Source: Octopus vulgaris
Lineage: Eukaryota
Direction of reading: 5' to 3'
Assembly (NCBI GenBank): GCA_951406725.2
Contig: OX597823.1
Location: 42,780,001 to 42,844,000 of the forward strand
DNA: 64,000 nucleotides
Shown here: piece by piece, positions 2,578 through 43,100 of the stretch
Numbering within the stretch: the first letter of the stretch is position 1
How the letters are laid out: every line of letters begins with the position of its first letter
Position numbers and translations under genes: made by a program
Notes under the pieces: generated by a model
Databases searched by the model: none
Seen by the model: the letters and a program-made list of their open reading frames with translations, nothing else
What the model was told of the DNA's origin: nothing

Positions 2578-3234
2578 CTTTACTATTATTGTTATTGAAC
2601 AAAAAAAGCAAGCCCTTTCCAATTTCAATGAAACAGAACTAAATATTGGGCGTGGTAATATATTTGGTGACACTGTGTAAGATGAACGCAAATGAACGTA
2701 AATGATTGAGTTTATATAAACGAAGTAGATTATGCTATAAATTGCGTGGCATGATGCATTATTATGATAATCGATTTTTCTCATAAAGACATCATATATT
2801 AAATCTAACAGAAAGTTTATGAGGCATGTGATTGAACAAGGAACTAAGGAATATTGAAACTGGGAAAAGTCTAAGGCTAAACAAAATCAATGATGATCAA
2901 GTGATGTTATTAACCAGGGTTCCAAGTTAAAACGATTTCCACGATAAGACTAACAAACTATTTAATAGAACTACTGTAAATTTATCACAATACCACAGTT
3001 TATACTAACTCACACCTTGTTTCACATAAGTCTTTAAGCGAGGCTTATATAAGCAGAATATCATTACCTCAGGAGGGTCATTATGCCAGAAAAACCTGAA
3101 TCTGACCTGGGGTAGAGAGGGAATGTCATTAGCAGTGAATGGTCTTTGACAAATATAACTATTTGATTGATCAACCGAATGATTAATCAAATATTCAATG
3201 AGTTAATTGGGTAAATCATCATTATTATAATTTT

Positions 3235-3712
3235 TTTTTTATCACAGGTTTTGTTGGAACTCCTGAAGTCTTGCATGTGTAGCGGTCTTGCTACCCGCAG
3301 CCTACGGTACCATGCTATCCGTTCTTCTCAACTATATAATACTTTACTGATTATTCTGGCCGTACCACGGAAGCAAAACTTTTGTAACAGTTGTACTGTG
3401 CACTCTATTCTAATTGCCTTGATATTCCACTTGATGCGTTCTGATACTGTTTCCAAGGACCCAACAATAATTGGCACTATCTTCACCTACTTCATTACTC
3501 ATAGCCGGGCTATTTCGTACTTAAGAGGGTTGTATTTATCTAATTTTTCGCCATTCCTTCTTGACTATTCGTGGGTCAAAGTGAGGATGCAACATCAACT
3601 TTTTAGCACATTTGGTGCATTTTGTCGATTTTAGGTCCGGTCTGTCATGCTCTAGCACCCGATCTGTTAGGATTAGAAAATCTCAGAGGATTTTGCTAGC
3701 ATCCTGGTCTAG
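3235..3712 (-). mobile_element. R4/Dong-like LINE, restriction-like endonuclease domain plus 3' UTR (pseudogenised)
   Basis: Minus strand: KIL*DFLILTDRVLEHDRPDL...VDVA...EKLDKYNPLKYEIARL*..KIVPIIVGSLETV...LLQKFCFRGTARIISKVLYS* (stop 3328-3330). This is the PD..D..K..KY RLE signature, with stops and frameshifts. Confidence 0.85.
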
Positions 3713-32440: not shown

Positions 32441-33060
32441 AAGAGTTATCAAATAAATTTACAGAAAGAAAAAGGATGAGTGTACGTGAGAAAGTGAATT
32501 TGACTTTGAAAAAGGTGTCTTTGAAATTAATGTCTAATTCGATTCGTCTCTGCTAATAATTCGATAGAAAATTATCTTCTTTATGGTTTGGAAATGGATC
32601 TTTTGACGCAAACACACCGGAACAAAGCAAATTAAGCAACAATAGATTCCAAGAAAATGGTAACAATATAACAGTAGCAAGGAGAAGATGAACAACAACA
32701 GCAATAAGAAGAACGACAAAACGACGACGACGATGTCTATGATTAAGATAACAATTATAAAAACCAACAGCAACAGCAACAGCAACATCAACATCAATAA
32801 TGATAATATTTTCCCTATTAGACACACAACCTCGTGAACTTAAAACATACGAACGTTTTATTAGGGGTTAGTAAGAACGAAAAGACAATGTGAAATCAGA
32901 AATGTGCCATCACGTTTACAAATATAAAGGGAGAAGCGAGAGACGTTATACAACGTAAGAAAGGATGTAATATGAATTTTAAAGGTACATACACACGCAT
33001 ATACACAAGGATACACACATACGTACATATATATATACATATATATATAGATATATACAA

Positions 33061-33109
<49 letters not shown>

Positions 33110-33126
33110 CATATAGATATATACAA

Positions 33127-33194
<68 letters not shown>

Positions 33195-33420
33195 AAAGGG
33201 CTTAGTAAAATAAATTACATATTAATATATAAATAAATAATATATATATATATATATATAATATATATATTTTGCCGCATACTGAACTCATTAGAAATAG
33301 CAGCCAAAAAAAACCTTTTTTAAAAACTATTTCCAATACTTAAAGAAAATCTCTCTCAAATAGTGCTTGTTCAATTCAACTCACGAAAGTATGAAGGTAG
33401 AAACATTAAAAAATCAAATG

Positions 33421-33494
33421 CAAAGGTTATTTGAGAACGTACGTTTCAAGATTAGTCAAACTCGACACTTCTATCATCAGCTCAGAACTCCCTG
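33421..33494 (-). ncRNA. Type I hammerhead ribozyme (left-arm copy)
   Basis: Reverse complement of the 34451-34524 motif. Confidence 0.85.
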
Positions 33495-34450
33495 GTTTGG
33501 ATTTGAAAACACTGAAAGCAGGAGCATACCTATTCGGTTTCCCATCGTCTCCGAAGATCTACTCGCAACTAACAGTGCCAACGAATTCAAATATGCAAGC
33601 GAAGAATTTCTGCTCTCCCCCTTCCACCAGCGTGGGTTAAAATCAACAAACAACATGCTTTTTTTCGGTAAAATCCGAGGCATTAAATAGAGAAAGATGA
33701 ATTATAATTTCAACAATTGAGGGTAAAATTAATTAATTAATCAATTTCACCAAGTGTTCAGTATGCAAAGGGACCACTTAAGGCGAATTCAAATTATTAC
33801 ATTATATAAAAGGGCTTAGTAAAATAAATTACTTTGCCGCATACTGAACTCATTAGAAATAGCAGCCAAAAAAAACTTTTTTTAAAAACTATTTCCAATA
33901 CTTAAAGAAAATCTCTCTCAAATAGTGCTTGTTCAATTCAACTCACGAAAGTATGAGGGTAGAAACATTAAAAAATCAAATGCAAAGGTTATTTGAGAAC
34001 GTACGTTTCAAGATTAGTCAAACTCGACACTTCTATCATCAATAGTTTTTAAAATAATTTTTAAAAAAGTTTTTTTTGGCTGCTATTTCTAATGAGTTCA
34101 GTATGCGGCAAAGTAATTTATTTTACTAAGCCCTTTTATATAATGTAATAATTTGAATTCGCCTTAAATGGTCCCTTTGCATACTGAACACTTGGTGAAA
34201 TTGATTAATTAATTAATTTTACCCTCAATTGTTGAAATTATAATTCATCTTTCTCTATTTAATGCCTCGGATTTTACCGAAAAAAAGCATGTTGTTTGTT
34301 GATTTTAACCCACGCTGGTGGAAGGGGGAGAGCAGAAATTCTTCGCTTGCATATTTGAATTCGTTGGCACTGTTAGTTGCGAGTAGATCTTCGGAGACGA
34401 TGGGAAACCGAATAGGTATGCTCCTGCTTTCAGTGTTTTCAAATCCAAAC

Positions 34451-34524
34451 CAGGGAGTTCTGAGCTGATGATAGAAGTGTCGAGTTTGACTAATCTTGAA
34501 ACGTACGTTCTCAAATAACCTTTG
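34451..34524 (+). ncRNA. Type I hammerhead ribozyme (right-arm copy)
   Basis: Stem I TGAG(34461-64)/CTCA(34510-13), extended by CAGGGAGTT/AACCTTTG. Core CTGATGA 34465-71. Stem II AGA..GTC/GAC..TCT. GAAA 34498-501. Palindromic stem III AC-GTAC-GT. GUU triplet, predicted cut after 34509. Confidence 0.85.
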
Positions 34525-34915
34525 CATTTGATTTTTTAATGTTTCTACCCTCATACTTTCGTGAGTTGAATTGAACAAGCACTATTTGAGAGAGATTTTC
34601 TTTAAGTATTGGAAATAGTTTTTAAAAAAGGTTTTTTTGGCTGCTATTTCTAATGAGTTCAGTATGCGGCAAAGTAATTTATTTTACTAAGCCCTTTTAT
34701 ATAATGTAATAATTTGAATTCGCCTTAAATGGTCCCTTTGCATACTGAACACTTGGTGAAATTGATTAATTAATTAATTTTACCCTCAATTGTTGAAATT
34801 ATATATATATATATATATATACGTATATAGTAAAAGAGAGAGGTCATGCTTCTTTGTTCATATTCTGTCATTGGACTGACAGCGGAAAATTGTGTGTTTG
34901 TATATATATATATAC

Positions 34916-35059: not shown

Positions 35060-36150
35060 GGTCTACGCTTAGGTCAGAGAAAAGATGTGTATGTTAAAAT
35101 GGGGAGAATGGTCAAAAGAAATATGTGAGAAAAGAAGAAAGAAAGGGAAGAGAAAGTGAAAAAGCAGTGTTAGTTGGTGGTAAAGATATTAACCACGCTG
35201 ATCTTAAGATAGACTTCATGCCCTTGTTTTATTTAATAGCGACCATTCAACATGCATGGAGTTTGTTTTTGTAACTACTCTTCTCCCCCTCTCTATATCT
35301 TTATATATATATATATACATATGAGTGTAAATATATATGTATATAGTAGGTAAGGCTAGTTAAACTCTCGGTTCGATATTAATGCGAGTGTGGAGTTTAA
35401 TGCGGATCTTGTATGAGCATGTGTATGTTAAATAAAATGAGACAACAAAGCCAAGGCTCTGTGTAATGTTTAGGAGATTTATCGAGAGAAATTTAGTATT
35501 ACAGCTGTTTCTCGGATATTAGGGAAATACCTTCATTAGAGATGGTGTGAGATGGTTAAATAGAGGGAAATAGTAGAGTCCAATATAAGGAGTTATTTTG
35601 GAAAAGTTTGAAAATAAAAAGTATAACGGGAAATAGGTGAATAAAAGTAAAAATAAGAATATTTGCAGGAAAGTGGTGTGTAAGAAAGTGGTGTGTAGAA
35701 ATGATAGAAATGTTTCTTGTCCATGGTATGTAAATTTTGATAGGAGTTCATATTCTGTCATTACAAATAGAAAGTGTGGAGACGTAGATTCCATGTGCTG
35801 TTCAATCAAAGGGGGACTTGTGGTGTGACTGAAATTTTGAGAATATAGCGGTAGTATTAAGTAGATAGAGAGGAGAGAAAAGATGTGTATGTTAAAATGA
35901 GAAGAATCGTCAAAGGGAATAGGTGAGGAAAGAAGAAAGAAAGAAAGAAAGAGGAAGAGAAAGTGAGAAGGGAGTGTTAGTTGGTGGTCAAGATGTTATG
36001 ACAGGGATGGGAAAGGAGTAGGGGAGGGATAGGAAGAGATAAGAGTTAAAGAATGAATATGTATGAGGAAAGAGAGATGGAGTGATATGTTTTAAAGAAC
36101 TAAGGTGGAGGGATAAGTACAGAAAATGGTACAGGGGGTTACTAAATTGA
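35060..36150 (-). mobile_element. Decayed PLE-type terminal region with a ~115-bp direct repeat and inactive hammerhead
   Basis: ~35077-35191 is repeated at ~35875-35998. Minus strand 35496-35545 reads CTAATGA..GAAACAGCTGTA (G5 mutated). Confidence 0.45.
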
Positions 36151-42438: not shown

Positions 42439-42810
42439 TCATAGGACGTCGACAGGACACCCCAATACTGTTTTCACACATTTTTCCCATTCATCTCGAT
42501 ATTCCATAACGGTCCTCAGCTCCTGTAACCTTTCTATACCAGTATCCTCCAACAAGTTGTCGATATAGGTCGTCTTCTTCCTTCCTCTCCTAGTTCTTCC
42601 TTCCGTTGGTTGCCAGAGCACCAGCTTGTTAGCAATTTCATCGGTGTGTCTGATGCAGTGTCCAGCTAGCCTCACCCTTCTATGCTGTATCTTCAAGATT
42701 ACTTTTGGTAGTCCCTGGTATAAGTCGGCGTTTGTTGTATGACCCTTCCAGGAGACATTGAGTTCCAATGTAAGCACTCTCGTATAACAACCATCTAATT
42801 GCCGGTAGCA
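42439..42810 (-). mobile_element. RTE-clade LINE 3' end (5'-truncated)
   Basis: LDGCYTRVL..LNVSWKGHTTNADLY..IQHRRVRLAGHCIRH..LVLWQPTEGRTRRGRKKTTYIDNL..MEYRDEW is the characteristic RTE C-terminus. Ends at (TA)n. Confidence 0.9.
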
Positions 42811-43100
42811 CAACTTCCGCTGGACTAGATATCTCTCAAGGTTCACAGACAATAGATGTACGCGTGTAATTGCCTGTAGTTATTCAAGAAATAACCGCTC
42901 CGAAGCCCCATCTCACCGGCGATGAAGGACAATCTATTTAAGAAATAAGGGACAAGATGAAAATGAGTAGCATAATCAAGAAAGTTGGAACCGCATTGTG
43001 CCCACAATGTATAACATCTAATAATTTGATCATCGATACAATGATATATATATACGAATATTACATTGAATGCACAACCGTTTGTGTGTATATATATATA

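Follow-up and report, generated by a model that had tools for sequence, protein, structure and literature searches.

Copies of a single non-coding unit occupy positions 33187–34803 of the 64-kb window (the whole 64,000-nt stretch of Octopus vulgaris DNA that was analysed), between two (TA)n tracts. The locus is most probably one recent insertion of a multicopy, non-coding 561-nt retrozyme that was copied into (TA)n by a Penelope-like reverse transcriptase (RT)-endonuclease. On the features testable here, which are those of the sequence, the unit belongs to the metazoan non-LTR retrozymes and represents a new family. The window is microsatellite-rich, with ~34% G+C, and no tRNA was found in its 64 kb.

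The element is composed of two divergent arms (Table 1), and unit positions u1–561 are counted from 34243. The arms are ~99% identical, extend over only 1.3–1.4 units each and differ in phase, and the period of the unit is 561 nt in the right arm and 562 nt in the left. A preliminary description, made from the letters alone, had proposed tandem arrays of a 562-bp unit that lacks a protein domain, arranged identically in two inverted arms. The repeat and the lack of a Pfam match stand, but the period applies to the left arm only, arms this short do not amount to arrays, and the left arm does not mirror the layout of the right. For the right arm, the layout of a partial copy (34042–34242) followed by a full unit (34243–34804) was correct, but its exact parts now include a 10-nt imperfect duplication ahead of u371–561, and the unit ends at 34803. 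The near-identity of the copies was borne out, with 4 substitutions and 1 single-base indel among the four and 236 of 236 columns identical in the 5′ half of the unit, as was the location of both element ends in (TA)n. A 120-nt purine-rich repeat is also found near the element, in two copies that are ~90% alike and 800 bp apart (35076–35191 and 35874–35998).

Table 1. Features of the two-armed element and its (TA)n surroundings, with positions in the window.
Feature	Position	Strand
(TA)n-rich microsatellite, left side of target site	33027–33186	
32-nt unit piece u432–463, outer end of left arm; Penelope 'tail' size	33187–33218	−
52-nt TA-rich filler, splitting left arm exactly between u431 and u432	33219–33270	
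Left arm, second pass through unit, u1–431	33271–33702	−
Complete type I hammerhead motif, left arm; C3 at 33480, predicted cut after 33436	33415–33505	−
Left arm, 5′-truncated first pass (read from 34041), u224–561; cut site 33998	33703–34041	−
Inversion junction with short imperfect duplication (10 nt); TRF period 12 at 34041–34074	34042–34051	+
Right arm, 5′-truncated partial copy u371–561, pseudo-LTR equivalent; without hammerhead	34052–34242	+
Full 561-nt unit (u1–561), 35% G+C; no Pfam or Penelope coding match	34243–34803	+
Complete type I hammerhead motif, right arm; extended stem I, predicted cut after 34509	34440–34530	+
Predicted structured 3′ domain: hairpin 34608–34654, long-range stem 34657–34667/34740–34750, hairpin 34755–34784	34608–34784	+
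(TA)n, right side of target site; terminal TATA of unit merges into tract	34804–34820	

Complete type I hammerheads number two only, one per strand, at 34465 (+) and 33480 (−). In the right arm the core CUGAUGA (34465–34471), GAAA (34498–34501), the GUU triplet, the palindromic helix III (AC-GUAC-GU) and the predicted cut site are positioned as in the preliminary description. A third motif, at 34041 (−), starts one base inside the core and is without C3 and the 5′ strand of stem I, with the cut site kept. Stem II is weak and is closed by a U·U pair in place of the usual G10.1-C11.1, and helix III is made up of 2 bp and a tetraloop. The motif is therefore not 'minimal', as had been suggested, by the definition of Cervera & de la Pena 2014 (PMC4209133), where the minimal hammerhead of Penelope-like elements is given in the available text as one with helix III absent or reduced, an extra base after A9 and a G10.1-C11.1 pair.

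The hammerhead motif exceeds chance expectation. A type I descriptor, written after the motif had been seen and tolerating the U·U stem-II mismatch, found, with both strands of the 64-kb window scanned, no matches besides 34465 (+) and 33480 (−), and was matched by 16 of 20,000 dinucleotide shuffles of the unit, or by none of 20,000 when the palindromic loop III was included. The Rfam search that had been proposed as a check gave no hit at the gathering score and, at E<=10, seven irrelevant hits, none of them a hammerhead. Over 99 nt, the predicted active fold has an energy of −12.4 kcal/mol against −17.1 for the minimum-energy fold. In the left arm the predicted active fold lies 5.4–10.1 kcal/mol above the minimum, and a predicted double-hammerhead fold gains 4.7 kcal/mol over the monomeric one. 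Folding of the isolated motif was no better than that of shuffles (z 0.03–0.9). As the active fold is above the minimum and the double form is favoured, weak, dimer-assisted cleavage is predicted; on these models, cutting is probably weak in a single hammerhead and improved by dimerisation via the palindromic helix III. The axolotl hammerhead HHR_Amex2, described in the available part of PMC7229834, has the same U·U stem-II base and 2-bp helix III with a tetraloop; in an hour its monomer reaches 22% cleavage, and its dimer is more efficient. By our own count in the accessible File S2 of PMC8557442, the hammerheads of Hydra-clade Penelope elements have a U·U stem-II base in 14 of 25 cases and carry U at the cut in 10 of the 25.

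Cleavage was detected in only 1 of 9 retrozyme dimers according to the available text of Li, Clavereau & Pollet 2026 (bioRxiv 10.64898/2026.07.22.740005; hereafter Li et al. 2026). No arm of the present element contains a second complete hammerhead in the orientation of the first, and the locus is therefore not an 'active retrozyme' as defined in that text, which goes against the activity that had been supposed for it. Efficient release of monomers from this locus is unlikely.

Signs of constraint at the RNA level come from modelled strand-biased folding, candidate compensatory pairs and the scarcity of variants in the motif. The circular fold of the unit has a z of −4.8 on the hammerhead strand and −2.2 on the other strand (60 shuffles each), and 8 control stretches of the window range from −2.6 to +1.9 (15 shuffles each). 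The 3′ domain (the 3′ 204 nt) gives −5.5, with none of 200 shuffles as good. Among the 40 of 62 variants listed, none of 38 variable positions falls inside 34440–34530 (P 0.0009 if uniform); three small indels are listed in the motif region, at 34457, 34484 and 34485, and the stretch 34632–34800 is variant-poor to the same degree as the hammerhead. Also among the listed variants, Watson-Crick pairing is kept in both of the two predicted pairs that vary on both sides (P 0.02–0.05). The candidate compensatory pair 34667/34740 has shares of 0.50/0.45, 0.73/0.69, 0.56/0.58 and 0.54/0.41 in the four sequencing runs described below, and the second candidate, 34299/34575, has unequal shares. The overall relation of the listed variants to the fold does not reach significance (P 0.12 for pairs kept, P 0.17 for pairs broken). 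A 3-base insertion at 34766, within or next to the loop of the final hairpin, accounts for ~1/10 to 1/5 of depth in all four runs.

The insertion is young; the family itself is not. Words of the unit are present in 20 of the 24 runs listed (8 studies, three species labels), none of the 20 being listed as RNA and 8 being guessed to be. Contigs were analysed from four runs under two of these labels, namely X1, the possible source run, X2, which is guessed to be RNA and whose contigs are not in themselves evidence of transcription, X3, and X8, which carries a second species label. Contigs matching the unit number 3852 (X1), 175 (X2), 757 (X3) and 2521 (X8), and a single-copy unit, named in the preliminary description as an outcome that would count against it, is not what was found; contig depth values do not equal copy numbers. 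Identity to the unit spans 80–100%, from >99% to <90%, with 205 of the 3852 X1 contigs <90% alike. The high number of contigs and this spread in identity indicate a family that is multicopy and old enough for subfamilies, so that of the recent mobilisation proposed earlier, the recent insertion holds and the young family does not. At several sites >90% of depth differs from the base in the window copy, which has the minority base there. Another inversion in the family is seen in an X2 contig (depth 272) that joins 34633 and 34728 on opposite strands, and 34633 falls within the hairpin 34608–34654, which is also the site of the 5′ truncation of the right arm. Scans of viral contigs for the unit gave no matches. 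Three metagenome contigs that matched a 19-nt pattern were rejected as chance, with similarity over only 19–36 nt and no hammerhead core upstream.

The anatomy of the insertion resembles that left by Penelope-like elements. The hallmarks of Penelope-like insertion listed in the available portion of Craig et al. 2021 (PMC8557442), which covers the Hydra clade and non-autonomous Chlamys elements such as MRC1, are a partial tandem, an adjacent inverted 5′-truncated copy, a 30–40-bp tail and a (TA)n target; a Penelope tail of 30–40 bp is likewise reported in PMC11167929. The present locus has a partial tandem (pseudo-LTR, pLTR) with an adjacent inverted 5′-truncated copy, as in PMC8557442, and a tail-sized 32-nt piece that is separated by the TA filler. 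The ends of the arms are 98 nt apart in the unit, which is more than a 30–40-nt tail. TATA occurs at two sites only in the unit, and both outer ends of the element are within 2 nt of one of them. In each arm, the 3′ end of the flank runs on into the strand that is antisense to the hammerhead, which is the orientation expected of first-strand cDNA, and neither end of the insertion is at the predicted ribozyme cut. In vitro, purified Penelope protein extends both target strands, begins at two internal sites, one on either side of the tail, and takes as template mainly RNA left uncut by the hammerhead (PMC11167929). By analogy, the tandem, inverted copy, tail-like piece and TA target make mobilisation by a Penelope RT likely. 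The preliminary description of a unit that lacks an RT and carries Penelope-type insertion anatomy is upheld, there being no coding remnant in the unit and agreement with the accessible hallmarks in PMC8557442.

Under the preferred reading, a tandem locus elsewhere would be transcribed into RNA longer than one unit, which might optionally be cut and closed into 561-nt circles. Penelope protein would then nick both strands of the (TA)n target, and each 3′ end would prime cDNA at an internal site of the RNA, at u561 for the right arm and u463 for the left. A restart of the left-arm cDNA at u431 would leave the 32-nt tail-like piece. Both cDNAs would exceed the unit length (752 and 801 nt of template), cross intact ribozyme cut sites, and stop short before being joined back to back. 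With cDNAs longer than one unit that run through intact cut sites, a linear monomer produced by cleavage would not have sufficed as template, which points to an uncut multimer or a ligated circle, and the 4 substitutions and 1 indel between copies fit either a circle or a linear multimer. A more specific reading, which is considered unlikely, is that the unit is an active high-copy retrozyme with a 561-nt rod-like circular RNA, its structure kept by compensatory change, and that the insertion arose when Penelope protein primed twice on the circle; rolling-circle reverse transcription would then have proceeded from both target ends. If the locus were read through, the 620-bp inverted arms would give long dsRNA.

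The unit has no RT and GIY-YIG reading frame and is thus not an autonomous Penelope-like element. Its 3 longest frames have no Pfam match, and no Penelope coding remnant was detected in it, the best profile score (−2.0) being equalled by 83 of 300 shuffles, with a positive control, the relic at 52.3 kb, scoring 92.7. A tblastn match of the joint of the unit to Penelope RT motifs (E 0.041, 1 of 150 queries) failed the profile test. A 108-codon open frame lies antisense to the hammerhead strand (34255–34581 (−) and 33364–33690 (+)). The 108-aa product has no homologue among longer proteins and no Pfam family, and the frame is probably due to chance.

A candidate for the type of partner is offered by the relic itself. 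The segment 52295–52929 (+) is a frameshifted remnant of a Penelope-like RT thumb/linker, with 748 homologues at E<=0.001 (best tblastn E 5e-26), and its sequence resembles the Hydra clade when compared by eye with the accessible supplement of Craig et al. (PMC8557442). The form of the hammerhead, the (TA)n preference of the Hydra clade, listed in the available part of the same source, and this relic together suggest a (TA)n-targeting Hydra-clade element as the partner, a tentative best guess that falls just short of being favoured outright. The one octopus element compared, Hydra-1_Obim, has a hammerhead without the U·U form, and its ends are unlike the unit by eye; short unit motifs were absent from the available supplement in 6 of 7 cases, the seventh, an 8-mer, matching 3 unrelated places (PMC8557442). 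Other frames in the window, at 42439–42879 (−), which has no Pfam match, 2290–2886 (−) and 3215–3634, are presumably C-terminal fragments of non-LTR (LINE-type) retrotransposon proteins. The (TA)n target is also used by Naiad elements.

Of the alternatives, the one that survives best, and is nonetheless improbable, takes the unit to be the UTR or pLTR of a full-length autonomous Penelope-like element, with the tandems as occasional, internally deleted by-products. The hammerhead is of a form typical of Hydra-clade pLTRs in the accessible data of PMC8557442, and retrozymes are homologous to pLTRs in the available text of Li et al. 2026. In the three DNA runs, summed depth drops by a factor of about 9 to 27 at the first bin of the unit, as it might if many copies had other sequence upstream; however, an equally deep dip in mid-unit, at 34395–34413, results from divergence alone. 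Room for a long element is left by the short contigs and by 268 loose ends beyond those listed, but the share of contigs that run on into unlike sequence is 0 in the three DNA runs, and the coding search described above found no Penelope remnant in the unit. The end-to-start (head-to-tail) joint further argues against this explanation. Both arms contain it, as do 4 of 4 runs (3 of 3 without X1), and a 630-nt X8 contig and a 291-nt X3 contig, ~80–85% alike, retain the joint or a period near 560, indicating diverged relatives of the same period.

Still less probable is a satellite that spreads as DNA, by unequal exchange or by capture of extrachromosomal circles at a (TA)n break, in which the hammerhead, inherited from an ancestral pLTR, would be no more than a decayed passenger. 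The available text of Li et al. 2026 allows for unequal crossover as a means of local amplification, and the weak stem II, the active fold that is not the most stable one and the lack of an Rfam hit would all suit a decayed ribozyme. Some relatives are also without the hammerhead core: the stretch 34441–34518 is unaligned in the most diverged X8 contig (no. 25), and the core is missing from the loose-end consensus of 6 X1 contigs that end at 34485. However, the bias of folding towards one strand, the candidate compensatory pairs and the low number of variants within the motif point the other way, and divergent, 5′-truncated arms plus a piece of tail size are the expected remains of a Penelope insertion (PMC8557442, available portion; PMC11167929).

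Two further explanations carry hardly any weight. A rolling-circle DNA element, in the form of a non-autonomous repeat of Helitron/Helentron type, families that are characterised by a terminal hairpin and a CTRR-type end, would account for the hairpin 34755–34784 ~20 nt from the right end, the tandem copies and the TA target, but no CTRR-type end is present in the sequence, and neither the inverted 5′-truncated arm nor the hammerhead would be expected. An assembly fold-back artefact, though structures of this kind are known to trouble assemblies (PMC8557442, accessible part) and the inversion joint of the locus is absent among the joints listed in 4 runs, is opposed by arms that are asymmetric about the junction and differ by substitutions and an indel, by outer flanks that have no mirror-image match in BLAST, and by the tandem joint in independent runs.

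Among known systems, the unit is closest to the non-LTR retrozymes of Cervera & de la Pena 2020 (PMC7229834), as far as the available text describes them, and the most similar motif is the axolotl HHR_Amex2 in Rtz_353. Shared features are a non-coding head-to-tail unit, G+C <45%, one type I hammerhead per unit, many copies, a U·U stem-II base, a 2-bp helix III with a tetraloop and a predicted highly self-paired circle. The unit is longer, at 561 nt against 150–450 in that source, and is within the 51–972 given in Li et al. 2026. It also differs in having only 1.3–1.4 units per arm, an inverted arm and a tail-like piece. The cut site is paired away in the predicted circle, unlike in most animal retrozymes covered by the available part of PMC7229834. 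No report of a cephalopod retrozyme was found in the literature searched, most subscription papers and repeat databases being outside that search.

Retrozymes are regarded in the available text of Li et al. 2026 as non-autonomous Penelope derivatives of 51–972 bp, and a proposed dependence on Penelope-like elements is thus common to that study and to this one. The basis there is co-occurrence and pLTR homology, mainly in vertebrates, whereas here it is the anatomy of an insertion, and no homology to a named element is involved. Neither mollusc nor cephalopod occurs as a word in the available text, and inverted insertions are not discussed in it. The U·U-type hammerhead is common to the unit and to Hydra-clade elements in the accessible portion of PMC8557442, where non-autonomous Chlamydomonas members with head-to-tail copies are also known. 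In contrast to the autonomous Penelope-like elements in that portion, the unit has no RT or GIY-YIG frame, its hammerhead lies 240–340 nt from the ends compared with roughly 100–210 in the Hydra-clade tables, and it differs from most Chlamys elements, which are without hammerheads. Poseidon of Anolis carolinensis in vitro (Frangieh et al. 2024, PMC11167929) has in common with the events proposed for the unit the extension of both target strands, internal initiation, a tail between two start sites and an uncut RNA template. However, Poseidon is autonomous, and the AC-rich stem loop in which it initiates has no homology to the target; the ends here adjoin TATA in the unit.

Mobilisation of animal retrozymes by Penelope-like elements has been proposed already, from co-occurrence and pLTR homology. 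What is added here is a new family and a retrozyme-type unit that bears the marks of Penelope insertion, the ends of which suggest that the template was not a ribozyme-cut linear monomer. Young insertions of this type, collected genome-wide, could separate circular from multimeric templates and name the partner. If the reading with an active circular RNA were true, retrozymes would be tied mechanistically to a Hydra-clade partner, and the unit would provide a natural substrate with which to probe the role of the hammerhead in Penelope transposition.
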